A stretch of 64,000 nt of DNA. Source: Haplodiscus bocki (lineage: Eukaryota). Every line of letters begins with the position of its first letter. Position 1 is the first letter of the stretch. Below the pieces are notes generated by a model. The model was given only the letters and a program-made list of their open reading frames with translations, was not told where the DNA came from and did no database searches. Positions 1 through 34,030 of the stretch are shown here, piece by piece. The stretch spans positions 14,508,001-14,572,000 of the forward strand of contig OZ296655.1 of the NCBI GenBank assembly GCA_965655095.1, in the 5' to 3' direction. A program made the position numbers and the translations under genes.

Positions 1-3000
1 TCTTGCGCTTCCTAAAACCCTTAAAGGTCACACCCGAAAGTCTACTGAATGAAAGAATTAGGGATGGCTGGATGACCTCGGTTTTTGCATACGCCTTGAA
101 GTTTTGTACAATGCGGCTTTTTCGAACTACTGTCGGAACTTTTGCAATAGAGTCCCCCTTTCTCCAGGCAGTGTTCTGAAGCAATAACATGTACAACAAA
201 CGCTAAAGAAATTTGTTCAGTTTTGCTAAAAACTGAAACAAAACTGTTTTTTTTTCAAACATCGTTTCGCAGAGTACAAATAACCTTGCGACTCAAATTT
301 TGAAATCTCTGGGCCAGCACATAACCAAAAAATACTTTTCGTCCCAGCCAACTAGGAATTCTGTTTCTGTGAGGCTTCTTTTGCGAGATGCCAAGTTTCT
401 GGAGTTATTGATCTTGTTCGGTGTTTAGTACTTGAGCAATTACTCTTTCTTTCGGGGCCATTTACCTTTGTAGATCGTTTTTCTGCAAGTGTTTACTTGA
501 GCTTCCAGCAAGCAGCACAAAATACTACAGTGGTTTTTCCGTGCACGACGCCCTGCATTTTAGCAGGGCTATCGGTAGCCAAATTTCTGACGATTTAGAT
601 GCGCAAAAAGAAGCTTTGTTTTCTCCGTTGTTATTTTTTCTTACCGATATATGAAATGTGAACACAACCTCGGTGCCTCATATTACGTGGAAGCGAAAGA
701 TCCGAAAAACACGCCACAACCAAATTTGAGGACTCATTGGAGTAGGTATAGAAGATTTTGGTGTACGCTTTTTTTCATTAGAGAGTCATTGATCTTCTAC
801 ACTGCCTTTAATAAAGATCAGGTCACAGTTGTTCCAACAAGTACACGGAGGAGCCATAGAAAGCTTCGTTGTGTCTTAGCGACTCTAGCTGGTGGCTTGC
901 GATGCTTCGTAACGGGTGTCACTGCCGATGGAGCATAAAGTTTGGTAAAGAGATAAAGACAAACAAAGGCTTCAATCCCTTTTCCTGTTGTTGAAAAATA
1001 AACCTTGAGTCAGTTTGTTTCATATGTTTTGAAGAGACTTCATCAAGTTTTTGTGGAAGTTACTTATACGGAGCGTTTGCATGATTAATTCAATGATTCA
1101 AGCAGATATCTGGTCAGCGACGAACGTTGTTTTGCACGCCATTTATGAAAAAAGTCTTCATTTTGGATAAAAGTTGTCCTTTCGATAGATAAATTTTGTC
1201 AAACACCACCTTCGTCAGGAAATTTTTTTTTTGCTCAGCAATTCTGTGTTAGCTATTTTCGAACTCCAGATTTTGGAGCATTACGTGAGGATGGGAAACC
1301 CACAAGGAAAGAGGCTTCTGGATTTCATCTTGAATTTGTATGTGTCAGGTGCAGTTAATATGACGTGTTTTCAAATCATCGGCAACACCTGTAAATTTTT
1401 TAAAAAATGGTTGGACTCCACTCCGGATAGTTTGAAAAGGTTTAGTACAAGAGGTATAGAAACAGAGGCTGTTGAGGCGCGATTCTTTTTGTAGAAACAA
1501 AACAAAACGTGCCGAAATTTTTTTTCAAGCAAGGTTTTCAAACAGGAATTCAAATTGGGGTTGCTGCAACAATACCCTTAAACAAGTTTTCGAAAGAAAC
1601 GTTGCTTCGAGCCAGATGGTTTGTTCATACAAGTTAGGTGTGTATTGCGCCCTATTTCTAGTATGCCATTGCTGAAAATACTCTGTAGGCAACAGTGTCT
1701 AGGTGAATGATTCAATGAAAATGATGCAAATAATGTTCTTAGCGTATCTCAGGCCGGAGTAAGTTCTTTGTCACCGCACATACCAAACCTGGATTCCTAA
1801 AGCTGTGTTGTTATTCGTAAAAAGTGTTGCGTTCTCCATCAAGTTAACAGTTCCGGAATCTGTAGATTTGTTCAACTTCCTTGTAAATCTATGCGGCTCC
1901 AACAGTTCACCAAAAACTGGGTGACTTTGATCCAAGCTTGACAACCCAGATTGTTGGTTGTGAAAATTCTCATTCTGGTTGAAAGAGCAATTTTGCGTAG
2001 TTGTTAAACGGCTCATTGATGTGTCCCACATAGGGTGTGTCGGTAAAAAGCAGCGGAGGCTTGCTGCTTTCCTTCTTCTTCATCAGAAGGAAAGTCAACT
2101 GCTACCATTGGTTTTGGACTTCTGAACGTCTCACGGTGGGAACAGTTCTGCTATTCGAACGTCGCACACATTTTTCCCTTTGGCCTTCGTTTTTTCCACA
2201 GTTGGTTCCCCTTTCGGCGATTGATTACTGTTTTTCGTTGGTCAGTGCTACACAGATGGAACCGTATTGACAATGGGAGCTGTAAAACGTTGCGATGACG
2301 ATCGCATGAGCGTTAATCGGCAACTAGAGGTTCATTTAGTAAATTTGTTGAAAAACCACCCTAGGGTAGCGTTGAATAAGTGTCGGGCTTTGTGAACGTT
2401 TTTTCCCAAAGCCTTTTTTCGTGCGAACAGGGTTGTCAAAGAGCAATGCTTGGTTGCAAATTGTCGACTGTGACGCCTACGTTTGCAGGTTACTGACCGG
2501 AAATTAATGTTCTCATGGAGTTTTAAATAGACACAGGCGTCGAAATATCGCTGGACTAGGAGTCCAAGCATAACATTTAGGTGGTTTTTAAATGATGTCA
2601 CTTAATTGTATCGACGGGATCCGACTAGAGTAAAGCTACTATCGAAAGAATAGGTCGTATTATAATGTGTTGGTGTACCCTTGTTTTCTCGGAAACCAGA
2701 GTTCCAGCATTTATTCATCTTTAGTCAGTATTATTTGAAGCTTTGCCTGTTTTCCATTACTTGACGCCAGATTTTAGCCATCCTTTGGAACGAACGTCGT
2801 TTTCGAAGTGTTACCAAAGTTCTATAATTACAATTTGCTCTGATACTTTATCGCTTTTTTTGGAGTGCTATTGTTACATTTCTAACTTCGTCGTTAAAAG
2901 GCTTTTCAATGATAGTTTATGCAAAAAAAAACAAATTACGCGGCTCTCTTGAGACTCTAACAGATACATTACTTGCAGTGACTGGTTTTCATGTTTTTGT

Positions 3001-4559
3001 GGTGTTGCAGTGAAGTAGCATTTCTGATGTTTCTGTGACGTCGTCTCAAGCCTTCGGACCAAATAGTGTTCTAATTCTTCCGTAAAAATTTTTTCAAATT
3101 ACTTTTTGAACAATATCTGCCTGGAAGACACTGTTTAGGGTTTTTTCAGATCTGAAACAAACGTTTAAAGCTTCTCGGTTGTCCAATTGAGAGTCAGTTC
3201 TTTTTGGAATCATTTCCTCACTCGTATAAGTTTTTAATATTGTATACCTCATGAAAGCATTTTATGTACCTTGTTTTTGATGAGGTGGTTGCCCAACAAC
3301 CGCGTGTTTAACAAAACGGCCCGTAAACTTGAGGAAATTGCGACTAACTTGTAGAATTGCGCATCAAATTTTTGAACGTTTTCTTTGTTTCTCACCAAAA
3401 AACTGTAAATAGTGATTGTTTGAGACCATAAAACTATCTCTCGATTATTCTTAAAAACGTATTTTTTGTTTTGTTCACTTTGTGAACTGGATAGTGTATC
3501 ACCGATATGTTTAATGTCACCAGATGTTTATTGCAAGTATAAAAGAGGGGCTCTTGTTTCTGGCTTCCTGGTTTAATTTGAGATGTGTTCATCTTTGCTT
3601 CTAAAGAAGACTATGGGGCAGTTTTAATTTTCGGAGATGTTCCATTCCTCATAGATTTAGTGAGTTTTTTACTTTTGGGTTGGCTATGTAGCTGTGTTAC
3701 AGTGGCAAATTTTTGATTGCGAGAGTCTTTTGTCTAATAGGCGAAGGACCTACACGAGGGAGGATTCTGGACCAATCACCAGTTTCCCAATTAGTCAGTG
3801 ACCCACATGTTGTATGTTTGTTCGGTTTGTCTGCTTTGATGATACCTTGTTCAAGTGTTCTCAGTTGTTTCGGCTGAATAATATTTTTTTGGTGGCCTTG
3901 TCTTTTTATGGGCAGCACAGGAGACGCCCAGGTCTTTGATCCATTCAGAGCACTCTTCATCGCATCTTCGAGTGAGTCATTCAAAAATGACCATCCAGAA
4001 AAGATAACAGCTCATCCTCTAGAAACGAATTTTAAACAAACAAAAGGAAAATAAATTATCAATCGGCATCATGCCGTCAACAAATATGTGTCAAGCAAAA
4101 AAAATCCGGCAATGAGTCCAAGAGTCTCTATCTCTGGAATAATACCTTTAGAACGGTTCAATCTGGTGGCGTTTGCTTAATTGCAATGATCAGGACCACA
4201 AATTCTAAACAAAGTGTTAAATGAATGTCCGACAGGAGTAAATTTCCTGAAAATGAAGTCAACTTTATCGAAACAGTACGAACAATAATTGGATGAAAGT
4301 AAAATCCTTCAGCTAGGAAGCCTACTGGAAAACCATTTGCTATCCAGAACAATGCCACACGTTGGGTGGCTGTATTTGACATTGCGTCGGCGCCGAAAAA
4401 GACGCAACAACCTCAGAACTAAAGTAAGTGTTTTCAATTTTTACTTTTTATTCCAAGTCATAAGTTTGGGGGTAAGCAGTAACATGTATATACAATTTTT
4501 TCAGATAAAATTGAACGTTGTTGTTTAGAGCCTCAAGGGATCTGAATTGAAGAATTGTT

Positions 4560-6900
4560 TTGAGATTTTGTGAAAGAGAGACTACTTTTAATCAGTGTAC
4601 CTCTCCCACATTGTTTTTGGGGAGCAAAACTGCAGTTGGAAGTGCATGGCTGAAACGTTTGTCATGTTTTGATGGAAGCACATGCTTGTTTTTACAGTTT
4701 CTTGTGAAAACAAACACAAGTCTTCTGGAAACTGTTCGATGAACTCCGGATTTTTCACAAGTAAAAAGAACCAAAAGAGGAAGGGAAGTAGTGACATTAG
4801 CATCAGCTACCGGTAGCTACCGGTGATATTCCACGAAATTTGTTCCACATAGTTTGTTCAGTTGAGTACCCTTGACGTTTCAACAACTTGTCAACGATTG
4901 CACAATGCTCATTGCAACTATTTTTGCATGGCACCTTTCGAGCAGACATTTAGTCTTTGTGAATGCAAGAAACCTCTGGTGATCTTTATTGAATCCGTGT
5001 AGTGGTCGTACTACTTCTGAGGATGTTATTTGAAAGTGAGTGTTTTTCTCGCATCTTCTATATTCCCTGCTGGCAATCAAAAATTTGCCACTGGTATCCC
5101 TGGAAAAGTTGTTTTTCAAAATGCATATACTTCAGAAGAAGCCGAATTTAAAGTATTAGTGTTTTTGAATTGTTACTTTTCCGGGGTGTGTATATTTCTT
5201 GACAATGAGTGAGGACAGTTTTTGGATGACAAACCCGGTAACTGCTGCCGGATGCACCTTGTTCAACTTCAACTGAATTTTTCGGCAGCGAAAAAATTGT
5301 TAAGTTTACTTGCAAAGACCGAATTTTGATGTATAATTTTTCCTTGACAAAGTTCCCATTTGAGCATTCCCGTGTAAAAAATGAGAGTAAAAAGGTGGCA
5401 TTGTATGTTTATTCAGATAGTTTTTCTATCCAGATAACATCTTGGTGCCTTTTTAATAACTGAGAGAGTGAATAGTTGAAAAACCGTGGCTGACGGTACA
5501 GGCGAAGGGTCCCTACGTAACAGCCAGACTATTCTGATACAGGTGATTGTTTTGGCGTTGAAGAAAACTGATAAGCCATTGCATTTCTTCAGATCTCAAA
5601 CTACAAAATCGAAACAACTTTTTCTTGAGAGGATATATGACAAAATGGCCAATACGGGCAAAAGCAGTAGTATTGCACGTTTTTTGGTCATCTCATCTGC
5701 CGACAGAATTGTGCGAAGTTGTTTTTGGATCGACATCTGACTGATAGTTCTGTTGCAGAGTTAACCTATCCAATCCATATTGTGTTTAAAAACTACCAAA
5801 ATAATTCGAAGACTGAGACTCATCAGGCAGTCGTTGTTATCAGCAGCATGACGAAAACGCATTTACAGTCAGTCCGTAAACTTTGTTTTCACATTACACC
5901 TGTTTTACTAGAATAAACACTGAACAACAAAAATTAGCTGATTTTGCATGCAACTTTCTTGCCTCCTACTTGTTCCGGCATTATGTACGACCATCGCATT
6001 TTGAGAAATGAAACAGCATGTGCTTGGTTACAGAAGAAGTCTGTTTGCTTCTGGACGGCCATCACACGCATGAACTTTAGAGACCTGGGAGAAGAACTGG
6101 ACGATCCACTGAGCGAATACCTGACCCGAAGCCATCATTCAGCATCGAGTTTCACCAGCAATGATTTTCCTCGCTTGCCAGCCATTTCGGTTGAATTGAA
6201 TCTATTGTCAGAATCTTTGACTAAGGTGACATAGTGTGTCATCAATAATGGTGGTTGGAAGAACTTTGGCTAGAAGAAACCAAGTTTGTGATAGGTCAAT
6301 CACTCACGGTGTTCATCATGTGAGAGTTTGTCGTCTTACAGCAGCTGCTGTAAAACTAAATGACTTGAAGTGTGTTCTCAATAACGCTCGGAAAACGCAT
6401 AATCAACCACCTCCAAAACAACATGTCAAGCCAAACCCTCATTACGATTGATTCAGTCAGAACTAACCGCCCAGAAAAAACACTTGCTGCTTTCTTGAAA
6501 CCAATATTTTCAAGACCAAGGTTAAACAGGTTATATATTGGCACGATGCCGTGAACAACTCTATGTCGAGCAAGAGGAATCTATCACGGAATCCGACAAC
6601 TCTCTCCTGCATTACAAGGACTTATTCGAGAAGGTTCAATGTGGTGGCTTTTGCCTACTTGCCATGATGAGGAGCAAAAAATTCAAACGAACTGTGGGAA
6701 AATTGTGTGACAGATTTAAGTTTCTTGAGAAAAACTTCGGTTCTGTTTTGCGGACAAAAGATTAGTTGATGAAAATGGTTATCTTCACCTAAATAGTCTG
6801 CCAAACAATCATGAGCTGTCTTCACTACAGTTAATTAGGGTTTGCAGGACTTGCCAATGCGTCGGTGCCAAAAGGTACGCAAAAACCTTCGAAACAAAGT
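4560..6900 (-). pseudogene. Older tandem paralogue of the 7050-8900 gene, present only in copy A
   Basis: Minus-strand 6230-5990 gives DSDNRFNSTEMAG...SLSGSSSSSPRSL...FFCNQAHAVSFLKMR, matching DSFNIFNSTEEAG...LKGLSASSS...FFFKQAHKITIFRKR at 8640-8410. DNA at 4630-4730 aligns with 7120-7220, and catcagc...agctacc occurs at 4801 and ~7275. Confidence 0.7.
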
Positions 6901-7049
6901 TTTCGTTTTGTTCAATTGTTTTTTTTTATTTCATCTTTTTGAAAAAAACCATTTGTACGTGTTTCCGTTAATTTTTTTGAAGGAATAGCAGAATCTTAGT
7001 GACTAGTCCGTTAACGGGTTTATTATCCGAACCGAGAAAATGTTTTGCG

Positions 7050-8900
7050 ATTTTATGCATCAAACGTTAAAATCAACAGGTGTCAAATTTTCAAAGGCCT
7101 TTTGGTGAGCAAATCTGATTTTGGAATTGTATGGCTGGACAGTTTGTCATTATTTATTGAGAGCAGATGCTTGATTTCACGACTTATCCTGAAAAAAGGA
7201 AAGTCTTCCGCAAACTATTTTAAGAGTGTGTTTTATTTAGGTCATATTGAACAGACGTGGATCGCAGAAATCGCCATCAGCAAAAGCTACCGTGACCTCC
7301 GTGAAAATTTTCCGATGACTGGGACGACCGTAGTTGTCTTGACACCACTTAAACTTTTGAAAAAAGATAACTGCTGTCGTGGTTCAATATTTTTGTTGAA
7401 TCGCGCCCTTTTTACTGGTTTTTTGATTTGAAAAGTTCAGTGGTGATCTTTGTTTGATTTCGTTGAACTCTGATCCTACTTTTTGACGATGTGATTTCAA
7501 ACTGCGTGCTTCTCTGGAAAGTTTTATTAACTCCTTTTTCATGGGGTTTCTAATACTGGTGTCTTCCGAAACTTTCTGTTCCTGGAAAGGCATTTAGTTC
7601 AGAAGACGTCGTGTGTAATGTGCTATCCGTTTTGCAATATAAAAGTTTTGAAACTGTGGATACTTTTTGATCTGGAGTGAGAAAAGGCAATTTCTAGGGA
7701 CAAACCGTGTAAATGGTTACATATTCATATGGTTTGGATATAAGTGTAGCTTACGCGGCCCTGAAGAACGGTTCGGCTGGCATTGAAGCAAATAAAAGTT
7801 TTCATGTTAATTTCTGACAAAGTTTTTAGCGAACTTTTCGTAGAAAACGAATTTTAAACAAAACAAACTTTATGACTTGTGTTTTCTATAGTATACCTTC
7901 TTTTCTGGAAACACCTTCTGACTTTCTAGTATGAAATGAAAAGACAAGGAAATGTTGTTGAAAAAACATGCAAAGAGACCCTGGTCAACAGCCAGAACAC
8001 TATGATAAGAATTGAAGGTTTTGCTTTTGGTTGAAGAGAAGTGATAAAACGGGGCAAACTACAAAATTGAAAATACCACAACCTGAAGTGACGTATGAAA
8101 AACGGCCTTGTTGGTCAATGGAATGGTAGAGATTGATGTTTTGTCCTCTCCTGAGCTTCTCCTCAGAAACCTGCAAAACAGTTTTTGGATCGTCCTTTGA
8201 CTTTTGGCTCTGCTGTAGAGATAACAGAGATGTTTTTTTGAACACTTGTTAGGGATATGACAAACATCTTCCGACAATTGAAATTCAACAGTCAATCGCT
8301 GTTGTCAACAAAGTGACCAACGAGAATTTAACGTCAGTTCCATATTCACTTTTCCGTGTACACAAGGGACAATAGCAATTGTCCTCCTTTTTTGGGAGTA
8401 TGGGCGATCGTCGTTTTCTGAATATTGTAATTTTGTGCGCTTGCTTAAAGAAGAAGTGTTTGTCGTCGTGGAATCTCGTTGCACATGTCATTTCCAGAGA
8501 CGTGGAGGAGGGAGGAGGAAGCGGACAATCCTTTGAGCAGAGACACGACCCAATGTCATCAGTTGGAATAGTTTTTCATTAGCAATGTTTTTTGGATGCC
8601 AGCTTCTTCTGTTGAATTGAAAATATTAAATGAATCTAAGACTGTGGTGACAGAGTATGTTAACAATATTGGTGAACGGTGAATGTTGTCTTAAGCAAAT
8701 CAAGTGGGGAGTACCTCTTTTGGACTGTTCATCAAAAGATAGTTCGTTGTCTTATTCCAGCTTCTGTTATCCCGAACAACTTGAAGTATGTTATCGATGA
8801 CGCTCGGTTTCCGCCCAACCGGCCACTTCTTTCAGAGCATGCCAGCCGATACGTTCAGCATGATTGATTCGTCAAGGATTTTTTAAATCTTTCAGGCGTA
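7050..8900 (-). pseudogene. Decayed gene of the tandem unit, unknown protein (copy-B homologue ~22450-24300)
   Basis: Both copies translate on the minus strand to shared peptides across frameshifts: FNSTE, KGLSASSS, FFxKQAH, LCYLYxR, EDKTxIxTIPLTNK, GCGxFNFVxCPVLSL, FACxFNNIxLS, LESQxxFPE, STQFxxxSSKSRIRxQR. Confidence 0.7.
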
Positions 8901-10012
8901 AGCCCATTTTGAAGTCGGACCACAATCAAGTAAAAAGAAATTACTCAGCTTCGGAGCTTTTATATTAAGTGTTATTCGTTAGCGCAGTCAATTTTGCAAA
9001 GTTTAAGCCATATTAGGTGAAATCTACATGCTGATTCATTAAAAACAAAAACTTTTTTCAACATTCGTTAGAGTGAAGTAAGTCTTTTGTGCTCTGTTTC
9101 CTGAAAACACCTTTTTTGGTTGTGCTAGTCACCGGGATTTGTTTCGGAAGGCTAGTTTGTTTTTCTTTTTTTGGATTTTGAAATTTTCCCCAAAAAGGCA
9201 CTACACTTCTCATTGCCACAATTGATCTGTTGCTGTATTTTTTTGTCAGTGGTCACTCATTTCTGATGCCATCAACATTCGTGCTAAATCGATTTGTTTC
9301 ACCTGTTCTGGAAAATTTTAGTGTAAATTTTTTTGTTGTACGAAAACTAGGGACGAACATTTGGTGCGTGATCTGTTTGGTGCTAACTTCAATTAAAAAA
9401 AGAACGGATAAGCAATTCATGTTATTTATTGACGCGTACAAAGTTTTAGGGTACGAATTGTTACTAACAGTAGCGATTGATGTTTCCAATGCCCAGACAA
9501 TTCGAATGATCAAGGAAGGTGGTATTTTCAAAAAAGTATAATTCGAGAACCTCTCCGAAGAATTCGCGATGACTACACTGAGATGAACTTCCTATTGCCA
9601 ACCACACAAAGAGGCACCTCAGGCGATATGGCACTATGCGCCGCCGTTGTCCGATGAAGAGATGTCAAGCCAAGAGGAACAACGGCAAATGCGAAAAAAT
9701 TTCGGAAATTTGAAGCTTTTTAAAACCAGCGGTTTGACAAGATGGTAGTTTCAAAGGTCAACTGAATAATTCTTTTTTATTTTTTGGCCTGCTAGTGTTG
9801 AATGGGCATCGGAAGTCAAACTTTTAGTTATTTGCTCTTTGTCCAGCAAGTCAGATAAAAATGTCAGTCTTGATTAATAATGATATTATAAAAAACATTT
9901 TTGGAGGTCAGAGGCGTTCAGCTCCATTCTCTTGTCTTGACGCTACAACTTGTACGTTTCAAGTTTTTGTTCAGGTTATTTGTTGAAGTTCACATGTTTT
10001 ACTGCAGCATTC
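8800..10012. repeat. 1.2-kb direct duplication, copy 1
   Basis: Runs from acgctcggtttccgcccaa to tgcagcattc. The core (9240-9830) is near-identical to 12840-13430, and ORFs 9253-9531 and 12852-13040 encode nearly the same peptide. Confidence 0.95.
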
Positions 10013-12402
10013 ACCGGGTTTTTCCACAGATTGGTACCCTTTCCTTCACTGGGTGGTCACGCATCTATTCTTTTCGGTATCCCGAGGCCGGGTAAAGACC
10101 CGTTTCCGATGTTTAAAATTAAACCTAAAAACATCATACCTCACAGTGCTCTGTGAAGGCGACTTCCGGTGCCAGTGGGGAGGATTTTTTTTCAAATCTT
10201 GCACGTGGACCTAGAACAGCACTGTAAGGAGTTTAATGTAGGAAAAGTTTTTTCCAATCGAAACGTGATGAGATAAGAGGGAACGATCGTGTATTTTACA
10301 CTATTCAAACATCCGTTTTATTCCTTGTCGACTGGACAAAACGGGCCCAGATTTTGTGTGTGAAGGAGCTAAAATATGAATAGGTTGCATTCTGGAAAAG
10401 TTTTGGGTTTTGATCCAACCACTTTGTTCCGGAGATAGGCGCTGATCAAATTTCTGAAGTTTGACAAAAACTGGTCATTGCGTCCTTCTTGATCAGAAAA
10501 AGTAACCTCTTTTCTTTTCCCACCCTTCTTGAAAGATCTCATAGGCGTATGGGGAACTAATTGTGATGAGAAAAAAAGGTGAAGCTCCAAAAAAAATGAC
10601 GGACAACACAATTTGTTGAAAAAAACTGTCTTTTGCACTCAAAACTCACAATTTCCTGCCCGAAAGCATTGTGGAACTCTTTCACGTTGTCCCAATGGTC
10701 CACAGTTAGAAAATCCGGTCTGACATCACATTTAAATCCCAATAATAGAAATCGGTCTTTTTGAGGTGATAGGTTTCAAGACAGTTTCCAAAAAATCCTA
10801 CTGTTTCCAAGCAGAAGAAAAAACTGATGCCAAAAATTGTGTTTCCCCAAAAAATATTCGACCTTGAAAAACTGTTAGGGCGGAAAATCGTGGTTCCAGG
10901 CAGGAAAGATTACGAAAACATTTTTGATTACGTTTTACCTGTGTAACTTACAGATATTTTTTTCGCATCAAGTGGAATGTATTGTTGAGCTAAAAAATGA
11001 AAAGTTTTAGTTGTGTTGGTTGTAGGGTTCTTTTCTTCTTTTTTTTTCAACCGCTTTTATCCCTTTTCTTTCTTCCTTTTCAACCTCGTCGTAAGAACTA
11101 ACTTCGCCTGAAATTTTGTAGGTTCTTCCATTGTGCGAAGTGTAGCTGTTCGGTCGAAACGCGTAGAAGTGCCATCTTTACATAAATACTTCGGGCAATC
11201 CTTTTATGGATTTTCTTTTGGCACTGAACAAGGATTATATCCATAGTACAGTTGCCCAGGAGGTTGTCCTGTTTAGTGTCAAAACACAAACGGTCGTGGT
11301 TAAAAGTTGATACTGAATCAAATTTGCGTAATCCTCTTTGCAAGCGCTCGAAGTCTTGCTCAAATCAGACAAGCATGGAATCTTTGCCGAAAAAATAGAA
11401 AATTGCCACTTTGAAGGTCTTTAATTTGTTTGTTAAACATCGTTTTCTAAACAAAAATTTTTACTTCAATTGTTGCAACTACAATGGTTAATCCTGTATT
11501 CTGACGGTATGGACCCTAATATAGGGTTTTATGATAAATTATTGCCTTTCGATTTTATTTAACGCATCTGCTTTTTAAACTCCTTTCGTGACTCAGTCAG
11601 ATAGATGTATGTGTCGATTAATATTGCACCAAAAACTGGCGCATCTGATTTCCAGAACGTGGTGTACACTTTTTGTTTATTTCTGTTGAGGGTTTCGTCA
11701 TCATTACCAAACGTCGTCGCCAAAGATGAACTTGTTTATGTGATCGACGTTGGAGAAGTTTTCACCTCAGAAGCAAATGCTGGAGACTTTTACGTTTCTG
11801 TGTTCTCAAGATCACTTGCAGCTCCTTAGGAACGGCTACGCTATTGAGATTTCAATGAGTTGCAGAACTTTGCTATTGTTTCTCTTGAAAACTGTTATAA
11901 AAAGCAAACCTGCCCCTCGGAAGAAAAGAAATTGTGCAAACTTGTGGGCGTTTGTCTGGAAGCAACGACTGCTCCTGTTTCCAATCACCAATGAAGTGTG
12001 TTTCTATTGTTAAAAACTATTTTGATCCTTTGGTGTTCTCCCTTGCATCAAGCAATACCTGGAGTCTTTTCTCGAATTCAGCAACTTTTCCTTGCACAGA
12101 AGCTAATTTGAGAAAAGTTTGCGTTGATTTCAGAAAACCGTTTTCAGGGAAATGATTGAACAGTAACTTCTTGGAAGACTATGGTTTCACAGAATTTCTT
12201 CCTTCAAAAACTTATCCTCTTACAGGTGACTGAAAGTGTTCGTTTTCTGCTATAGCAGTAACCAATTGTTCACAAGGTTGGTACTGTTCGAAATCACGCT
12301 ATTGAAATTGTTCAGTTTCAACCACCCTTCATTTTGCTCCGCGTGCTCTGGAGGTTTGGATGACCATTGACGATGATGTGGTACAGATTGCTTCGAAGCT
12401 GA

Positions 12403-20900: not shown

Positions 20901-23900
20901 CGGTAATGGAAAGGTTTTAAATTTTCGTTCGGTAAATATTGCAAACTACTAGTTGAATTTTTGTCTGACTGGAAGACGCTGATCAAGGTGTTCAAAGAAA
21001 TGAAACTGAACTTTATGTAAAATGAAGGGCTTACTGACAGTGAGTTATTTTAGGTGTCCGTATCTGACTGACGTCTTAAATTAATATTGTCTGCCTGAAG
21101 GAAGCAAGTTAGGTTTTTTTGCAGTTGTTGTGCTGGTTAACCAGCAACAGCCGACGTGACTTTTCAATCAGAATCTTTTTTGCCAGATGAACATTTAAGA
21201 GCTGTTTGCACCGCAACGGCATGTTCGAGACATTTTCTTTTGAATTTCAGGAGACAACAGCCAATTTGTATAAATGCCCAGCTACTTTCAAACCACGATC
21301 TATTTTTGTTACCAGGGGAACTGTAAAAGTGGAGATTTGGAATCATAAAATTTTCTCTCATTTATGCTTTGAATTGCGTTTTCCGTTATGTTCGCTCTGG
21401 TGAGGTCAACAGTATTTCACTGATATGTACTTTTTCACCGGAGCTTGTTGCGAGGTTAACGGAGGGACTCTAATTTCTAGCTTTTTAAAATTGATTAGTG
21501 ATATCTTCATCTTTAGTGCCAACGCACACCATAGACTAATTTTAATGCCTGGAAACGTTCATTTGCTCTAACAACTTTTGTACTTTTTTAACGATAAGGG
21601 CGGCTATGTAGCCGTCCTAAAGAAGATATTATCTTGCAGGAGTATAGTAAAGGGTATACAGGTACAAAAGTAGATTTTGTAGTGGTTGTTGGTTTTCCAG
21701 TTGGTCAGTAATCCATATAAGCTACGTCTGTTTCGTTTGTTGGCTTCGATGATAACATCTCCATTGATTTTCAGTTGTTAGGTCTGAATTTTTGTGGTAG
21801 CCTCATCCTTTCGGTGGGCAGCACAGGAGAAGCCTTGTTTTTTTTCGTTTCTTTAAGGCATACCCCTGCGCAAAATTGGATGTTTCATTCAAAAACAACC
21901 ACCAATAGTAAAAGTTGAGTATTTTCATGAGTGCGCTTTTTTCAAAACCAATGGTAAACAGGGTCCAAAATGGCAAGATGCGGTGAATAATTTTTCATCA
22001 AAAAAAAAGAATTTCGCAATGACTACTGGAACCTTTGACATTGAAAAGATTTTTTGAGATTGCACAATGTGGTGGCATTGCCTACATGTGATGGAGACCA
22101 CAATTGAAATGCTGAAAAATTGTCCGGATAAATTTTTTGAAAACGAATTCGATTCTGCTGACGCGGTACAAGAAATTAAATAAAGAAAGCTACGGTCTTC
22201 CTCGAAATAGTCATCTAGCAGAAAATGTGCTATCCAAAAAACTGCTAACCAATGGCTTGCAGGACTTTAAGTTGCGTCAGTGCCGGAATAGTCGCAATAA
22301 TCTCCAAAAAAGTTATTTTTGAGATTTCATTTATGTCTTGTTTCATCAAAGGTATAACAGGCGGGAAAACGAGTTTTCGGTAAATTCTTTGAGAGAAAAG
22401 AAGAACCTTGGTGTTATTCGCTGAACGGAAGTGACGTCCAAACCAAAGAACTGTTTTGAAGTTTTGTGAATTAACGCAGTTAAATTAACGCAATGCCAAA
22501 CTTTTAAAACCTTTTTGGTGAGCACAACCAAACTTCGAAGTGTATGGCTCCAGAGTTTATCCTAATGTATTTGCAACAACTGCTTGTTCCCATGACTTGC
22601 CGTGTAAACAAGTAAGTCCGCTGCAAAGCACTATGATGATTCGTGATCTTTAAAGGTGAAAAAACAGGAGGAGTGCACAAATCGCCATAAACAACAATTA
22701 AGTCTAGCTCCATGAAGATTATTCGATGACTGGGAAAACTGCCAGTGTTTCAACACCGCGTAAAAATTTGCAATTTGATGATTGAGGTCCTGACTCGCTA
22801 ATATTGATGAATCGCGCCATTTTGCTTCCATATGTTTTCGTGATTTGAAAAACTCAAAAGTCATTGTCTCCTCAAGTCGTTGAAATCTGATTCTGCTTTT
22901 TGACGATGCTTTTTTAAACTGCGTGCTCTTCTGAAAAAATGTGTTTATCTTTTTTGCATCGATTTTCTAACACTGTTAACTGTTGCGCACTTTTTGTTTT
23001 TGGAAATTCATTTATTTCAGAAGACGTCGATTATGATGTAATATCCGTTCTTGACTTTAAGTTTTGAATCTGTCGGTACTGTTTGACCTGGAGTTGAACA
23101 AAAGTTTTTCCACGACAAACGCGGTCGATGGTTTTCGAGCCAACTGGCTCACATCCATATTTAAAAAACACCGCATTGAAAAAATGCTCAGCTTTCGTTG
23201 AAGCAAATGGAAATTGTCATGTTGTTTTTCGGACCAGGGCATTTTTTGTTGAGAACAAATCAGAGTAAAAATATGACTTGTCTGCTGTATAAAAGAGTTT
23301 CCTCTCTGGAAACGAACTCTGACTTTCTAGTACGAACTGATGAGACAAATAAATGTTATTGAACTTACATGCAAAGGCTTCCTGGGCAACACTCAGAACA
23401 CTTTGATAAAGGTGGTTAGTTTTGGTGCTGGAGAAAAGTGATAGAACAGGGCATCCTACAAAATTGAAACGCCCACATCCTTAAGGGACGTATGAAAGAA
23501 TGGCCTTTATTGGTCAGTGGAATTGTGAAGATTGTGGTTTTGTCCTCAACTCAGCTTCTCCAGAGAAATCGGCTAAACTTTTCTAAGAACGTCATTTGGT
23601 TGCCGATTCTGTTGTAGAGATAACAGAGCCTTTCTTTCCAAAAATGTGTTTGGGGAAGGACCAAAACCTTCCGATTATTGAAATTCATTAGGCAATCGTT
23701 GTTATCAACAAAGTGTTTCATTAGGATTTCACGCCAGTTCCATCTTTACCTTCCCAAGTACACAAGGAACAAGAGCAAATGTTGTTTTCGCATGGTAACA
23801 TTAAAACTACTACTTTTTCCGGAAGTATGCGCGACCGTCGTTTTTTGAGAATTGAAACATTGTGCGCTTGCTTCTAGAAGAAGTGTTTGTCTTCGTGGAA

Positions 23901-26900
23901 TCTCGTCGCACGTATCATTTCTAGGGACGTGGAAGAGGAAGCGGACAATCCTTTGCGTGGAGACACGACCCAGTGTCATCAGTTTGAATCGATTTTCTGC
24001 AGCATTGTTTTTTGGATTCCACTTTTTTCGGTTGAATTGAATATATTAGGTGAATCTAAGACTGTGATGACAGAGTATGTTAACAAAAATGGTGGTCGGA
24101 GAATGTTGGCTTCAGCAAATGAAGTATCAGTGAGGAGTTTTTTTTCGCACTCTCAATTATGTGGGGGTTTGTCGTCTTTTGCCAGCTGCTGTAATCTTGA
24201 ACAACTTGAAATATGTTGTAGTTAACGCTCAGAAACCACACAAGCGACCACCTCCACTACAACATGCCAACATGAATTTTGAGCATGATCGATTTACCTT
24301 AGTTTCGTATGGAAACCCCCAGGCATACAACCTGTTCAAAAGGGGAAGATATGCAATAAATATATAAACGTTCAAGCTCGAAAATCTCACATCATTTCTC
24401 AATTTGTCGCACCGTCAAATTTTTTCCGTGCATTTCCCTCAGTAAATAAACTTTATATGATTGCTCCCTTATAAACAGTTTGTCAACACACGTTATATTG
24501 AAAGAAGCGATTGTTGTTCTTTTCCTTATAATGTTTTCGATTTGGTTGTGTTAGTGTAGTGCATTGAAATTTGAAAGTTAGTTCAACTTTCTTTGAATTT
24601 TTTGCATTGAGGTTTTTCTCAAGATTTCAGTACGCTTCCCATTGATAGACTTATACTGAGGAACTGTTCCACTTCATTTGCTGGTCACTCACTTCTGATT
24701 CTGACATCATTCGCGCGAGATTGATTTCTTTCACTTCGTGAAAAACAACCTTTTCGTTGTACCAAAGATAAGTGTGAACATTTAATGCGTCAATAGTCTT
24801 GTTTTGAATTTAATATGTCCTGAAATTCGAAAAATAATTAGGGTTTTCTTACGAAGCGTACAAATATCACATTAAAAAAATAGGACGATTTGTTTTTGGG
24901 ACGATTAGAGAAGTCGTTTGAAGGTGAAAAAAACCCAATTGTACGTTTAAAAATGTCTTTTCCTTGTTTGTTGTAAACTTTTCGTTGAATAAACGGAAGT
25001 GAATTTCATGTTCGCCTGAGACAACAAAGCAGCTCCGGCCAAAATGGCAAAGTGTTAGCTCCTTTGTTCCTTATAGAGAGATCGAATTTTTGGGAAAAAT
25101 CACAAATAACTAATCGCGTAGGAGCTTTGGAATCTTTCCATGAACAACAGTTTTGACATGCCAGTGTGTGTATGTACCGTAAGAAAACCCTAATGTTGTT
25201 CTTTGGCCTTGTAGTTGTCAATAGCCATTTGAAAACAAACTTTTACCTAAACGTTCTTCTTTCCAAAAGTGAGATCCAATTGAGAACCTTGGTAGTTATT
25301 CTTCCTTTCTAGAACGGTTATAGGCGTCGAAATCTTTTTTCTCTCCTTCTCATCTGTCGAAATTAAAACTTGTGAGTCTTTGTTTCAAAACACATTTTCA
25401 ATAGGTTTTCCCAGTTTCTTAACCAAGATTCCTGCGGCCTTTCTAGCGAACGGTACAATTTCCTCCACTGGAAGGTCAGAGATGTAGCATTTTCAGAGTT
25501 CGAGACTGCGGAGGGTCCCGCTGTCGAGGCTAAACAAATTTGAAACGGTGAAAAAAGATCATAGTGCACGTTGGGTCTAAGAATGCGATATCGGGTCCTA
25601 CCAGATAGAAGTTTTATATATATTTCATGCCATACTTTAATATTGCGACTGCAAGAACTTTGATGTGAGAAAAAAATGCCATCAAAAGCTAATGAAAAAT
25701 GACTGAATGTTTGTGTAGTTTGCTCTATTTTGGCATTCTCGGCGGCCCATATCTTCATCCACGGGACACAATGGGGCCAAAAAAGTTATATGAGGAAGAA
25801 ATAAAGTGAACAAGTTGCATGCCAAAAGTTTTAGACCGACTCCATTTTGGTCAGGGGATAAGCGTTGAGGAAGTGCCGGAAATTTACGGAAAATGAATCA
25901 TTCAGTCACTTTTGATCGCGAATTGTTTTTTTTGCCTCCTATTGATTGAGGTCAAGTCCAAAGAAAACCTAGAGCTGGAACAAAACCTGGCCCGAATGGC
26001 CAAAAAGAGCGGTATGACGAATGAGAAAAAGATCCATGTCGTTTAAAAAAAAGGAGGTTTTTCTGGACGAATTAGGTTCTCAAGGAACTTCTCGTATTTG
26101 CGTGCACAGTACGCCGAAGAGTGTTACTGAGGTTTTCATCAGCAAGTGCTTTTTGACTTTTTGACTAGAAGAAGTAAAACATGGATGTTTGAAGCGCGCC
26201 CCCGAACTGGCTATGGGATGAAAAAACTGCTCCCAAAGCTTCTGCCCCTGTGTTCACTCTGGGATAAAGTTACAGCCTCCATAACCTGTCCAGCATAGAA
26301 CGTAAAACGTAACAAAATCACATAACTTCAATTTCGATTGTTTGCTAGGAGCTTTCGGTTTGTTCCATTTTTTTCGAAAAATTTTGACGTTTTTTTTGTG
26401 TTTTCAATTTTGTTGGAATTCAACCCACTGTATGCACTTCTATAGGTTGCACCGCGTGAGTTGTAGCTTTTTCAGCGTAATGCGTTCAATTGTGCTTGGA
26501 ATTTGCTATTGTTTTGAGCAGTTTATGGCTGGAAGTTTTTCTGCCTTCAACAATGGTTTTCTTGGGAGTAAATTTCATCAAGAACTTGTCTTGTTAAGCG
26601 TCCATTATCAAGAGTCCTGCATTAGTTTTTAATCAAATTTATGTTCATCTTTTCTCAAGTACTCGTTGTGTCGCTAAAGTTACTTAATCATCGTATCTCC
26701 GCTAATAAGCTTCGAATACCGCAAATGTGAAGGTTGTTCATTGTTTCAAAAAGTTTTCAATGTCAGTCGATTGAACATTTTCACTTTGAAGGTTGCAATT
26801 GTAAAGAGTAGACCAATATCTGCAAAAATCGTACTTTTATTAAATCTGTCGGGATGATTTTGCAGTCCGTCTGTTTGATGAAGTTCTTCTTCGGCACCTA

Positions 26901-29900
26901 TTCCACGGTAGTTCCATATGTATTTCTATTTCACACTCACGCAGCAAATCCTTTTGAAACGATAGCGGTGTTGTCTTCACAAACTCCATTTGCAATGCAA
27001 ATTTTCCCTGATGGCTGCGTTGAGAGTTTGCTGAAAGGAACCACATCATAGAACAATTTGATCTCTGCGTCAATTTCTAAGAACACTTGTGCTCCAAAGC
27101 CTTTTGGGTATTCTGACTTTGGAGTTTTGACTGATTTGACCCATGAAGGCTCACATCAACCTCTGCTAGATTGAGTGTCACCTAAAACGATTTGTTGTTG
27201 ACCAGAAACAATTTGTTGAGCACAGCGAACGATGACTGTAAAAAAAATCTACTGAATGTGTTCTACTGAACTCAGCCGTTTCTTCCAAGGTCCTGCCCCA
27301 ACATACTTTTCAAGCAATCAGCACAAATTGACACAAGTACACTGGTAGTGGAGAAAAACATCGTTTGTTTTGTACAGTTTTAGTGTTTGTGCTTCCAATT
27401 GTTCAGCCGAGACTACGGAAGACGAAACACTTAGTGCTGAATGTCTGCGCTAATTGTTCTCGAGCTTCAGTTGATGCCGAAACTTTGAAAAGACAAACTT
27501 TAGGGAAAAAGGCAATCAGACAATGAAGTTTTGATTTTTGGCCTACTGTTACAACTTTACTTAGTGAAAGTTGTTTCCGTTACAATTAGTACGGACGATC
27601 TTATTGGTAGGCTTGGTCTAGCGTGCCTCTTTTGTTACTAAAAGATCTCAGCTCACGAGATTGTAGTATGCAGAATTTTGTTTCTTTTGCAACTCCAAAA
27701 AAAGGTGACTGCTGGGCTATGTGTCCAACACTGCCTCCTGCTTTTGTATATCTGATCCAGCTACTCTTGTTGAAATCCCTCTGAGCAAGGTGACTTCCGG
27801 TCCTTCTATCGTTATGGGGGATGCTTTGCACACTGAATGCTTTCCATGATCTAGATAGCCGCATGGATGTTTCACATTTGTTTCAGAAAGGGTTCACATC
27901 GGTTTCAACCACACCGATGAATGGTTGTATGACTCCACTCACACCGTTCAACTCTGATTACTTCAAAAAACTGATAACTGCAACAGACAATTGGTTGGAG
28001 CCAATGAAAGCTCTGAATGCATCTGTTGCTTCCGACTTCGTCAGTGTTTCCTAAAAGTCCATCCTGGTGCCTTGGTACCGGTGTTTCCCAAATTTTATTC
28101 ATGTCACTCATCATGCATTAGCAAGCCGTCCGGCAATTTTGTATCTTTAGGGATCTCAACAGTTTGCTAATGTAAATATAATACTTTTTCATACAGGTGA
28201 GTGAATTCTCTGCGCTCTGAGTTAAAATGTCCAGGTAAAATTGAAAGAGCCCAGTCTGTTTTCGTATTGAAGTATAATACAAGAGATTGCTCAGCGACTG
28301 GCAGTAAAATTTTCCGAGGCATGATGGTCTCAGTCGAACCTTTTGGGTGTACAAACGAAAAAGACTTTCCGACGACCAGTTGAGGCACCATTGTGATAAA
28401 ACGGTTGATCAATTCATTTGAGACTATTTCAATGTCTCTGTTCAATATTGATAGACGTCTGCCGGAGTTGATAAAGTGTGGTCAAAATAATTTGAAACAC
28501 TGGCAAGTCAATGAATGTTCCTTTGTAAGAATCACCCTCTGCTACTGATCAATAATTCTTCCAAAGGTTTCAAGTGCTTTGGCTAGAAAGGCTCTATTAC
28601 ATTGTCCAGTTAGTGGTTTTTCAGCAAGTCCTTCCAGAAGACATTCTTTTATTGGATTTCAGGAAAAGCAATTTGTTCCTTATGTTAACAAAACCGTCTG
28701 TGAGAAGGCCAGAGCGAGCTCAGCTTTTGAATAAATTCAAGAAGATGAAAACGACGAATTGTGTTGCGAATCTGCGGCCACTAGAGGAACAGTTTGAGGG
28801 ATCTCATGTTTCACTGCCTGTTACTGCTGATGGAGATTCGACTGTTTTGCAACGTGGTTTCCGAATGCAAATAACTGATTTTCAGCTCCCACTACACGTT
28901 TTATTGATTGAACAACGCGGTTTGCTGAAAAACAGTGGATGGTTTCCGTTATTGGTGCAGCAGAACACTGAAATTTTTTGGAGGAGATCACGGGAACCCG
29001 CCCCCTAACTCTGTCCTTTTGCTTCAGCCCGAAGGGCAGTTTTTCCATCCAGCTTTTGTCATCAAAAATCAGAAGGAACTTATTCGGCTGCGGTTCCTCC
29101 TACCTCATTAACTGATCACGAACGAACCAAAATGCTTGATTTTGCAAACTTAGAACACTGTTTACAAACGCGCTTGAAAGATCCGTCTCTGTTGACGTCA
29201 ACAGATACTCGTGAGTCTGTGTTGTGTTTTCGAGTCTGTTCATTCTACAGCTGCTTGTCAATGACATGCGAATGTTCCTTAACAGAGGTTGGAATGAAGC
29301 CGCTCGGCAATGAACGGCTGTACATGCCATGCAAGAATGGGATCAAGTTTTATTATCTGGGAGTTTCTCGGAGGAATGTCAATGAACTGGGAGCAACTTT
29401 GAATGAACGGCTAGCTACCAATTCTTTCAGCCCCTTTTGTGGCCAACCGATGCATCCTGGCTTGAGATAAAGTTTTAGTGCGCTGGAGCCAAAGCTTCCA
29501 AAAGATTAAGACCCCCGACAGATCGCAATTCAATTTGGTTCAGTCACCGTTTTGAGAGCATGTTACCGAACATATCGCTTGGTTCTGAAGTACATTGAAA
29601 CACCTCCCGAGCACCAACTGGGAGACGTGTCTAAGAGTTGCTCTCAATATGAGTTTCAAGATGAAGCTAGTGCGTTCCCTCACTTACATGCTTGCTTTGA
29701 TTGGGGCGTAAAAGGTTGCTTTAGAAAGCAGTGAAGTCTAGAGTTTGTTGCTTGGCAACAACCTATCTGGGGAAATTTTGACTGAAAGTGGTTTGGACAT
29801 TTTTAGAATGGAATAGATTTAGTGGGTTACGAGATTTGTTTTACCGTTACCAATCATACAGTTGTTTCAAGGCTAAGTTAAAGGTCAAAAGAAAACTAAG

Positions 29901-30729
29901 AAATGGAAAAAAAAATTGCTGAACGCTCAAATAACCTCTTTCTGCTGACTTTACCTACTAAAGTATCCATAAGGACCTCTCAGAAGAAAACATAACAGCT
30001 TCAAAGAAACTCGGTTTAGGGATTAGCCGAGTTGAATGACCTTGATTGTTCTGTTAGCACTGACCGGCGTCTGAGTGGTGGCAAACATCTTCTTCCAACG
30101 GAATTGAACTCTCATTTTTTTCCAACAGACTCTGAAGTTTCTGCCTTCGACCGATCTAGCACCAATCTGAAAAAATTGTTTCAATTGCATGAGTAGCCAA
30201 ATGTTTGTCAAAAAATGTCTAGGGCCTGGAGGCACGCAACAAAATTTCGGTTTATCCGTCGAGTGGAACACGTTTGCACAAATTCCATGTTGACAAAGAA
30301 GTCGAAAAACAAAACTGCTGGAAGCCACTTTGCAAATATAAAGAAGACAACAAGACCTCGAAAAAACTCTTCAACTTCTCGTATGTTTAATTTGACGGAG
30401 TTTCTGTAGTGATCCATGAAATTTCCTTACGTTGTCACCAACACCCAAGTGAATTGCGTTGCCACTGACCTTCGAGAGAAATGGGCTGGATTAGTTATGG
30501 AACCTGAATGCAGACTTTCTACTACTATTCAATGTTCTCTCTTTTGGGAGGCAGTGTCCCGTTAGACACAGCAAGGGTTTGCTCCTTACCGTTCCTCTAC
30601 AGAACATTAGAAGCTGCTGATAATTGATGCAGAAAACAGTACCCAATCCCCGGCCCAAATAACTGTTTCTGGTTTGTACCGTCCAAAGAACCAACCTCTC
30701 TGCTCATAAAGGAAATCTTTTTCAACGGT
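17924..30729 (-). repeat. Copy B of the large tandem multi-gene unit
   Basis: Same anchors as copy A in the same order and orientation. It lacks the copy-A segments ~4900-7080, 12403-13612 and ~14450-15215, which largely explains the shorter period (12.8 kb vs 17.9 kb). Confidence 0.9.
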
Positions 30730-33700
30730 TCTTGCGCTTCCTAAAACCCTTAAATGTCACACGAGAAAGTCTATTGAACGAGAAAATTAGTGATGACCTC
30801 GGTTTTTTACATACGCCATGATGTTTCCTACAATGAGGCCTTTTTGAACTACTGTCAGCACTTTTGCAATAGAGTCCCCCGTTATTCCAGACAATGTGGT
30901 GAAGCTATAACATGTACAAAAAACGCTAAAGAATCAAGTTCATTTCTGATAAAAGGGCTTGTCAGACTAAATGGTTTTGTCGAACATCGTTCCGCGGCAC
31001 ACAACCAATTGTTTGATCCACAAATTGTCGTTGCTTGGATACTATGTGACTCAACTCGACATCTTTCTCTGTCGCCTGTTAAACTTGCGTTTTCGAGGTT
31101 TCTTAAGCAAGACCTCCTAACAGCTGCTAAGGTATTGAAGTCGTTGCTGTTGCTCAGCGCTTCGTACTTGATTAAGTATGCTATCATACAGGGTCAACTA
31201 GCTTCTTAGATCGTTTCTTTACGAGTGTTCATTTGTGCATCCAGCAAGCAGCACAAAACATTTTAGAAATTTTCCCTGTTCAACACCCCGCGTTTCAGAA
31301 AAATAGCAACATTTCTGACAAATTAGATGCGCAAAAAGAGATTGGTTTGCTTCGTGCAGTTGTCAGTGTGGTTTTGTTGGTCTACCAGCTTATGCTCGAA
31401 GGATTTACGCCATCTTACCGCGTCCTTTCACCTAGAAGTAAAAGATCCATAGACCGCGCAACCAGATTGACAACTCGTTGGTAGATAAACAGAAGATTTT
31501 GGATTACATTTGTCCTTTGTAAGAGAATCGTTGCTTTTCCACCACTGCGTCTATTAAACGTGAAATCATAGTTGCTCACCAAGTTCGAACACGAGCCATG
31601 TGCTGCTTCATTGTGTCGTTGTTGCTCTAGCTAGAAGGTTGCGATGCATGAAAATAAGTGACGCTGCTGAAAGAGCATCAAGTTTCCTAGAAGACATACC
31701 ATTGCCCTAATCTCTTTTCGTGTTGTTGAAAATGAAATATCGAGTTATTCAGTTTCGCGTGCGTCAAACAGACTTCCTCGGAATCCTGTAAAATTTACCT
31801 TTATAGAGAGTTTGGACGATCGTTTCAATGATTTTATCTGAGCTTTGGTCCGGGACGGACACTGTACTGCCAGCATTTTTAAACAAAAATCATACTTTTG
31901 GAAGGTAAATTCGTGCTTCCACAGGTGATTTCCGTGAACTTCCTCCTAATTCCGGAACAGTTCTCTTGTTGAGTATCTCGGTGTCTGCTTCTTACAAGCT
32001 CCATTATTTGAGGCAATATATTAGGGTGAAGAAGAGCCAAGGAAAGAGGCGTGCGGAATTGCCGTCCGAATAACCTCTGTCAAAAACATGCAATAGGGAG
32101 TGTTGTCAAATCATCGAAAACTTCTGTAAATTTGTCAGCACGTGGTCGAAAGTCCATCTAGATAGTGTGAGATTATTCAATACGAGAATTGCGGAGAAAT
32201 AGGATGAAGATGACAGAATCTCCCGTGACAACACTTTAAGCGATACAGAGTTCCTTTTTCCAATGCAAGGATAAAATATCTCAGACCGGATCTCTCAATT
32301 GCATTATTGCAACAACACCCCGGAGCAAGTTACTTAAAAGTTGGTTGCCTTGAGCCGTAGTCTTTCTTTTTACATGTTGGTTATGTTTTGAGGCTAACCT
32401 AATTACTCGCGCCTAACGTAAATTCGTGGAGGCTTGTTGTACTTCGTAAACGGTTTGGCGTGCTGCACATAGAGAGCAACTCCACCGTTTGCAGAAGGTT
32501 TCATTTTCCTTCGAAAAATGATGCCACTTTAGGCGTTCACAAAATATTGTGTAACACCGTTTCACGCTTGGCAACACAGATTGTTGGCTGTGAAAATATC
32601 AAAACTTGGCTGAAGTAGCAGCTTTATCAGTTGATTGTCGAGTCACTATTCTGTCTCACGGCATGTTTATCGGTTACAAGCAACGAGCACTTGATGTATT
32701 TAGACTTGTTTGCCATCAAAATAGTCACTCGGTACTTTTGCTTCATACTATTTTGTCCTCTCGTTGCGGGTGGCGTTCTGGTATTTCAACAACCCAAATG
32801 TTTCATCCATTTCCTCTCCGTATCTTTGATGTGGTTCTTCCCACAATTGACAATTGGTTACCATTATTTTTTGGTGAGTGTTGAAGACAGGGAATTTTTT
32901 TACATTGGAAAGTGTAGAACGTTGCGGCGACGATTGTAAGAGCGCATTTCGGGAAATGAAGGTTCCTTTACCAAATCTGTTGAAAAAAGATTGTGGGCTC
33001 TAGTTGCTTACGTGTCGGCCCTTTCCAACGCTGTTTCTTGAGCCGTTATACTTACGAAAAGGATTAACAAAGAGCAATGGTTTTTCGCAATTTTTTTACT
33101 TTGAGGCTTGCGCTTGCAAAAGACTATTCCCAATGCAATGTTCTCACGGGTTTGTAAAAAGGTTAGAGGCATCAAAACAGCGCTCGAGAAAGAATCCAAG
33201 TATAACTCTCAGGGGTCTTTTGACTGTTGTAGCGTAAATGTCTCGATGGGTTCAGACTAAAGAGAAATTACTATCGTGAAGAAAAATCGTACAGGAAAGT
33301 ATTGGTTTACACTTGGTTTCTCAAAGACCAAAGTTTCAGCAACTATTCATCTTCAGCCAATCGTGTTGATAAATTCGACTACTGGCCATTGTATGTCGCT
33401 AATTTTGAGCCCACGTTTGAAAAAGACGACCTTTTCTAATTGTTAACAAACGAGTTTTCAAATGTATTTTGTTTTGATTCTTTATCACTTTTTCATTGGA
33501 CCAATACCATAAATTGTTTTCATTCGTGATCGAAACGTCTTCATATGATACCTAATGGAATCTCGAATGTAAATACCTTACACGATAATTGAATGATTCT
33601 CACATTCAATTTTTGCAATTTCTTGTTTGCAAGATTGTCTGGAGTTGCATTGAAGTAGGTGTTGTGATACTTTTTCGGAATTGTTTCAATCCTTTAGACC

Positions 33701-34030
33701 AACTAGGGTTATAACTTTTTTGTTCAGTGAATACTTCAAAGTGCTACTTGAAAAATTGTCTGACTGGAAGACACTGTGCAAAGATACTTAAGTCATTAAA
33801 TTGATCTCATATCTTTTTGAATGTCTCACTGTTTGTGAGTTTTTGGATGCTAATAGCGGATTCATAACTCCACTTAATGTTGTATTAAGACGGAAGCAAT
33901 CGAATTTTTAGGCTTTTGATGTGCTGTTTGCTCAGCGACCGCCGAAATGATTTCTCAGGTAGAATGATTTTTTTCTAGATGAACGTTTATGAGCTCGTTC
34001 CACGGCAAACGTTTGTTTCATGAACTGGCC
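30730..34030 (-). repeat. Copy C (truncated) of the large tandem multi-gene unit
   Basis: Starts with near-identity to position 1. Last clear homology is agatgaacgtttatgagct (~33977) to agatgaacatttaagagct (~21185); similarity ends near 34030. Confidence 0.88.

Follow-up and report, generated by a model that had tools for sequence, protein, structure and literature searches.

A fossil array in Haplodiscus bocki and a Helitron-like lineage that probably inserts at its own junctions

What are the long units that stand head to tail at the start of a 64,000-nucleotide stretch of the Haplodiscus bocki genome (assembly GCA_965655095.1, contig OZ296655.1, positions 14,508,001 to 14,572,000; the whole stretch is called the window here), and how did they come to be arranged in this way? 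A sequence-only reading had described at least three colinear head-to-tail copies of a 13-18 kb unit and proposed an unknown endogenous virus or giant mobile element. In our view they are likely the dead remains of three copies of a Helitron-like rolling-circle transposon 15 kb in length, and a fossil part of head-to-tail trains that probably grew by insertion at the junctions of resident copies. Comparison of the window with itself confirms three colinear copies in the same orientation (1-34041) at 63-70% DNA identity, and inspection of the upstream sequence for more units, as that reading had suggested, reveals a fourth directly before the window start. The unit sizes needed correction, the offsets having been shifted by indels: junctions at ~-5390, between 10052 and 10053 and between 25471 and 25472 delimit units 1 and 2 of ~15.4 kb each, followed by a truncated 8.6-kb unit 3 that is cut at 34041. 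An assembly artefact, a prospect that had been raised, is unlikely because assembled contigs from two public runs span both junctions in the window (the two runs come from one sample, possibly the source of the assembly itself) and because a second sample covers 30/30 bins.

The nature of the element becomes evident from its intact relatives. A 3.3-kb query finds 38 places in the genome, mostly at ~70% identity and many of them at 15.0-kb spacing; the young copies are 15.0 kb long, are 90-99.7% identical to one another and carry three open reading frames (ORFs) on one strand. ORF1 of the intact relative encodes P0002, a protein of 2,771 aa with an OTU-like domain, an HUH-Y2 Rep, a PIF1 helicase and an SLX1-like GIY-YIG nuclease. 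The Pfam matches to PIF1 (PF05970, E 4e-13), GIY-YIG (1e-8) and Helitron_like_N (PF14214, 2e-7) are all above cut-off, the OTU match (E 0.003) lies under it, and the best PDB match of the nuclease is SLX1 (E 1e-7). Thus, proteins that had seemed to belong to no recognisable family are recognisable through the intact relative. The fusion of an HUH-Y2 Rep to a PIF1 helicase, together with non-autonomous copies that share both ends with autonomous ones, places the element in the Helitron-like superfamily. A model of P0002 residues 490-1310 (mean pLDDT 62) resembles USP/UCH protease folds over ~890-1110 (Z 12.9, root-mean-square deviation 3.6, 205 residues aligned); this domain is probably inactive, since no conserved catalytic cysteine is visible there. 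ORF3 is predicted to fold as an RPA-like OB protein (Z 10.7, root-mean-square deviation 3.3, 105 aligned; Foldseek E 3e-5) and, in a scan of 18 long metagenome loci, lies next to ORF1 in 11. For ORF2, Pfam and PDB searches gave no match and the only lead comes from GDSL clusters in a protein atlas (score 0.92), where 21-46% of the members carry the family, so that it is possibly an SGNH protein.

A few observations touch on these proteins. A 2A-like motif, LLRSG[IV]ExNPGP, lies near the ORF1 N-terminus (P0002 residues 76-93; also in L083/L084, L158, P0006-P0008 and P0027) and is kept between families that are only 26% identical; it is without the usual Asp of what we take to be the 2A consensus, and it is possible that it serves as a ribosome-skip or signal sequence. 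A GDSL/SGNH domain (PF13472) occurs in several Helentron proteins (P0306, P0307, P0313, P0316, P0318 and P0321), so this cargo is recurrent across Helitron groups. An ORF2 homologue (E 7.5e-10) stands outside any train (L210:8895-9539, on G000:C11 at ~4.534 Mb), beside an ORF that we presume to be LINE-like, and may point to the source of ORF2. In distant relatives (metagenome loci L146-L189) the ORF3 homologue is found on either strand relative to ORF1, with extra unannotated ORFs flanking.

The idea of an endogenised virus, or a viral concatemer of an undescribed group, would account for an intronless 15-kb unit with circular-type junctions, and the 2A-like motif and protease-like domains do recall viral polyproteins. 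However, the relatives have the Rep and PIF1 architecture of Helitrons, non-coding derivatives of 1.0-1.4 kb share their ends, and insertion is precise and without duplication. Nor is a structural gene recognised among the three ORFs: Pfam, PDB and fold searches (ORF1 folded in part, ORF3 folded) matched no capsid, packaging or polymerase protein, and IMG/VR holds no relative of the lineage that we could find. We give a virus almost no credence; the sequence-only reading had itself named a match to a known transposon as decisive against it, and PF14214 and PF05970 are such matches. Its other proposal, a giant mobile element in a group not yet described and with a tandem layout in need of explanation, was well judged.

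The window copies themselves are far decayed. Within 1-34041 the longest stop-free frame is 153 aa, and each copy has 36-38 stops and 71-117 indels, which does not fit the gene-dense DNA that had been supposed. The nine peptide motifs that had been quoted are all present on the minus strand, but comparison with the intact relatives identifies the plus strand as the coding one, and these peptides are antisense to a decayed ORF. The best match of every window unit is P0002, private changes (14-22%) are near even across codon positions, and the pattern of shared changes is near star-like. By this comparison the units are one old family that decayed after insertion, the decay of the window copies being neutral; the alternative that they are different families is ruled out by the common best match and the near star-like sharing. 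The fossil train in the window may have arisen by repeated insertion or as a concatemer.

The ends of the element and its target were read from young copies, all of which, where examined, are flanked by the ends of related elements (10/10 at the 5' end, 12/12 at the 3' end). Elements start with [G/T]TG[G/C], end with CTRG and insert at CTNG^GT, and every junction is therefore a fresh target. The cut within a junction is CTRG^GTGG: the 4 nt that precede it vary with the upstream family and the 4 nt that follow with the downstream family; the latter read GTGC in 9/9 cases for one family and TTGG in another. At 299 junction-like sites, found with a pattern that demanded CTN[G/T], the 3' end is CTAG in 229 and CTGG in 58, which agrees with the CTRR end of Helitron-like elements of the HLE1 group. 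The host flank reads CTNG at 8/8 train heads (CTTG 4, CTGG 2, CTAG 1, CTCG 1) and starts with GT at 9/10 train tails. Empty sites exist for two trains: seven paralogues join the head flank of a 31-kb train on C11 straight to its tail flank, and a single paralogue shows the same for the train on C2, which is 30 kb long, so that in these two trains insertion neither duplicated nor removed target sequence; a third search, for the C1 train described below, found no empty site. An element ending in GGTGG was ruled out by the tails, the linkage to families and the empty sites. In every family a GC-rich hairpin motif is found 30-60 nt in from the 5' terminus. Two young copies (G000:C4:47977628-47977889 and C4:48068459-48068720) end at an internal CTGG 38 nt before the normal 3' end, with a new 5' end after it, which suggests termination or insertion at a secondary CTRG.

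The trains are long and mixed. Genome-wide, the junction pattern has 304 matches on the forward strand against 1 for the control, and in one short family 105/105 forward-strand 3' ends are followed by the 5'-end motif (forward-strand counts only; reverse-strand counts of gapped patterns are inflated, at 195 for 112 ends). A 232-kb train (C1:21,049,087-21,280,919) holds 123 elements of five families with 37 switches between families and no opposite-strand junction; nearly all of its elements are of unit length and their joins are base-exact. It consists of short 1.0-1.4-kb copies, non-coding derivatives whose ends are shared with autonomous elements, and of autonomous 12-17-kb elements whose ORF1s are 26-42% identical to P0002. 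The fetched regions together contain 278 junctions, of which 111 link elements of different families; these cross-family junctions fall into 54 types. Neighbours are not closer kin than non-neighbours: of 116 short elements only 13 have their nearest relative next to them, adjacent and non-adjacent pairs of one family have median identities of 88.0 and 87.6%, and 109 of 235 short elements have their nearest relative in a different fetched region. This argues for insertion one by one at junctions rather than for tandem amplification. By extrapolation from 292 in 256 kb, the host offers ~1.7 million CTNG^GT sites, yet the copies stand in trains of a single orientation; 210 further such sites lie inside the C1 train, off its junctions. 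In autonomous families of ~17 kb (G000:C1:21232017-21249060 and C9:1738409-1755307) the entire ORF cassette runs opposite to the direction of the termini; because the ends of these elements keep the orientation of the train, it is the ends, not transcription, that set train polarity.

Several observations weigh against growth by junction targeting. Families clump in the C1 train (37 switches, against 80 in shuffles), although a smaller train on C6 comes near the shuffled range (10 switches; mean 15, minimum 8), and identical twins are common: many of the short elements have one at another place in their train. Such same-family runs and twins are what one would expect if trains of the same element grew mainly by rolling-circle concatemers, read-through of the 3' end, recombination of circles into same-family copies or unequal crossing-over, the only rule being the 6-bp target; tandem Helitron arrays attributed to rolling-circle amplification are on record for plants and bats (PMC5876387). 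However, none of these processes can make the first clean join between non-homologous families, joins that exist in so many cross-family types, nor do they explain why neighbours are not closest kin and why the nearest relative so often lies in another region. We therefore regard this alternative as improbable as the main route, while the clumping and the twins indicate that growth may owe something to concatemers, to recombination or to the copying of blocks. Two insertions lie near a junction rather than at it, 27 nt past a 3' end and 78 nt into a 5' end. They fit an attraction to the region over the base, as would be the case if insertion were broad and the trains mere survivors, with other copies purged by selection, or if these loci were hot spots of open chromatin. 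Yet insertion into a dead element would be harmless, which leaves the near-uniform unit length and base-exact joins of the C1 train unaccounted for, and a chromatin state would not explain the single orientation; this scenario appears very unlikely to us. Also on the debit side, one train tail begins with AT; five tails and seven heads show no clear excess of age over the interior copies, which gives no signal for the direction of growth; and the terminal hairpin is not significantly more stable than shuffles in 6/7 folds (1/7 significant). No 3' hairpin was evident in the seven folds and no terminal inverted repeat >6 nt was found, which leaves no evident terminator signal. Trains and termini are shown in one genome only, the terminal motif is not enriched in metagenome contigs (24 hits, 29 in shuffles), and the three copies in the window, being one family, give by themselves no sign of mixing.

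Insertion at resident junctions remains the reading that we favour, and its enzymology can be sketched by analogy with two known systems. Helraiser forms precise end-joined circles whose junction is cleaved by the transposase (PMC5876387), and IS91 takes a CTTG target beside its origin end that mirrors its own CTCG terminal cut (PMC13181058). By this analogy, the HUH-Y2 Rep would nick at CTNG^ ahead of the 5' end of the element, and the helicase would peel off one strand, which the RPA-like ORF3 product might coat. Another cut, behind the CTRG that ends the element, would close a circle, and this circle would be joined to a target nicked under the same rule; the architecture of the element is consistent with such a circular intermediate and with rolling-circle activity. 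Since a resident junction (CTRG^GTGG plus hairpin) reproduces the enzyme's own origin in full, it would be much preferred as a target over a bare CTNG^GT in host DNA. Each insertion would create two junctions, so that a founder copy could seed a growing train open to any family of the lineage. The SLX1-like nuclease would most likely trim a branched strand-transfer intermediate (a flap), the least supported step; for both this nuclease and ORF3 it is the fold that suggests the role.

How is the lineage related to known Helitron-like elements? A word search found 43 homologues and there are 48 metagenome loci; the lineage is large, with 342 clusters at 50% identity scoring E<=1e-30 against the C-terminal 1,200 residues of P0002, some of them possibly other helicases. 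Among the best 150 library hits, GIY-YIG is present in 122/123 that reach past the helicase, and 23/23 aligned relatives retain without change the HUH motif, the two tyrosines and the lysine of Walker A. In separate Rep and helicase trees the 23 members split from in-genome and database rows of HLE1 and HLE2 with SH-aLRT support of 99-100. DUF6570, an HLE2 marker, and the AP endonuclease of Helentrons are absent from P0002 and 16 relatives and are found in the in-genome HLE2 controls. These results support a third lineage apart from the sampled HLE1 and HLE2, without proving it, because the trees are unrooted, HLE1 is represented by two distinct Rep rows and one helicase row, and long branches meet. 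Moreover, the HLE2 rows are mostly of one Helentron subgroup. The elements that HELIANO leaves 'unclassified', from 19 genomes, may include this clade.

With HLE1, that is, canonical Helitrons (Helraiser, PDB 7LCC), the lineage shares the HUH-Y2 Rep-PIF1 fusion, a CTRR-type 3' end, the lack of target duplication, RPA-like cargo and precise end-to-end junctions (PMC11417382, PMC5876387). Unlike HLE1, which starts with TC and targets A^T (PMC11417382), it starts with [G/T]TG[G/C] and targets CTNG^GT, has its hairpin motif at the 5' end, carries a C-terminal SLX1-like nuclease and forms a separate branch in both trees; a hairpin of the HLE1 type, 16-20 nt long and directly before the 3' end, was not evident in seven junction folds, no systematic scan having been made. 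[quoted passage not shown] It differs from HLE2 in its GIY-YIG nuclease in place of the AP endonuclease, in giving no DUF6570 hit, in having no subterminal inverted repeats >6 nt, in its separate branch and in its target, which is T^T in HLE2 (PMC11417382). One Sphagnum HLE2 has captured a GIY-YIG, with terminal inverted repeats and TT sites (PMC11417382). The IS91 family, bacterial rolling-circle insertion sequences of the HUH-Y2 type, likewise inserts without duplication, at a tetranucleotide target beside the origin end (CTTG or, in rare cases, CTCG or CTGG) which is similar to the CTCG of its own terminal cut; unlike the lineage described here it is bacterial and without helicase or nuclease fusion, and the accessible text does not describe mixed-family trains (PMC13181058). 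Telomere-targeting Helitrons of Paramecium are also a third HLE branch, sequence-targeted, uniform in orientation and with a family-dependent ORF direction, but theirs is a host target, the C4A2 telomere repeats at chromosome ends (10.1101/2025.11.06.686955). Head-to-tail Helitron junctions are known as well from centromeric arrays in plants, but these reportedly have truncated copies and are ascribed to rolling-circle amplification (Xiong et al., 2016), whereas here full-length copies of many unrelated families alternate. Occasional self-insertion of Helitrons has been reported in Fusarium. In the literature accessible to us, with Repbase, Dfam, subscription journals and the HELIANO supplements outside the search, we found no description of this clade or of junction-targeted mixed trains.

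What is new is thus the insertion rule, a CTNG^GT target with a strong preference for the element's own junctions. How Helitrons choose their targets is an open question, and known Helitrons use two-base targets; this lineage displays in a eukaryote a rule like that of IS91, prefers its own junctions to an extreme degree and is available as intact copies. It is appealing to propose, and we do so with moderate confidence, that a widespread third eukaryotic lineage of rolling-circle elements, with an SLX1-like nuclease and an RPA-like partner gene, integrates at its own end-to-end junctions and so builds ordered, polarised cassette arrays of hundreds of kb that are common to many families. Such an array would be a safe harbour of the elements' own making that keeps a record of past insertions and could allow genes to be stacked repeatedly with base precision. 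Repeated targeted insertion is also a possible route to mixed satellites with kilobase units, and the system might serve as a tool to stack cargo at a single site while the target is left undamaged. The window itself is a fossil (its features are listed in the table), and its interest lies in the system to which it leads.

Table. Remnants of the three Helitron-like units in the window (positions counted from the first nucleotide of the window)
Feature	Position	Strand	Remarks
Unit 1, 3' two thirds	1-10052	+	starts ~5.4 kb upstream of the window, ~15.4 kb in total; ends CTGG
Unit 1 ORF1 remnant	1-2574	+	linker, PIF1 helicase (~800-1960), GIY-YIG (~2155-2420); stops and frameshifts; tblastn with P0002
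Unit 1 ORF2 remnant (SGNH-like, lead only)	3902-4453	+	
Unit 1 ORF3 remnant (predicted RPA-like OB fold)	5483-6448	+	
Second internal copy of ORF2 and ORF3 within unit 1	6461-8887	+	ORF2 6470-6976, ORF3 7933-8864
Junction of units 1 and 2	10049-10110	+	CTGG^GTGG, then GC-rich hairpin motif of the 5' terminus
Unit 2, decayed full-length element	10053-25471	+	15.4 kb
Unit 2 ORF1 remnant	11640-20540	+	OTU-like ~12150-12340; Rep motifs ~16570-16970; helicase ~18740-19950; GIY-YIG ~20130-20370
1.2-kb insert breaking unit 2 ORF1	12403-13612	+	copy of the near-terminal 3' region of unit 1 (8800-10012), younger (85% identical); ends ~40 nt short of the 3' end
Unit 2 ORF2 remnant	21794-22307	+	
Unit 2 ORF3 remnant	23334-24289	+	
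Junction of units 2 and 3	25468-25530	+	CTGG, then decayed 5' end (AAGG replacing GTGG)
Unit 3, with internal deletion, cut off past ORF1	25472-34041	+	without ORF2, ORF3 and 3' end
Unit 3 ORF1 remnant	26911-33160	+	HUH motif region ~29570-29720; helicase ~31490-32340; GIY-YIG ~32840-33040

Other repeats lie further along the window. A decayed 16-kb repeat at 47158-63091 is bounded by a 44-bp inverted repeat pair; a Pfam search of window fragments gave no match, and a relative carries what we take to be an integrase-like motif, which fits an earlier remark that a Polinton lies next to the array. Degenerate tandem repeats at 38600-40550 and 42050-42760, with periods of ~230 and 125-280 bp, are unrelated to the Helitron-like element.

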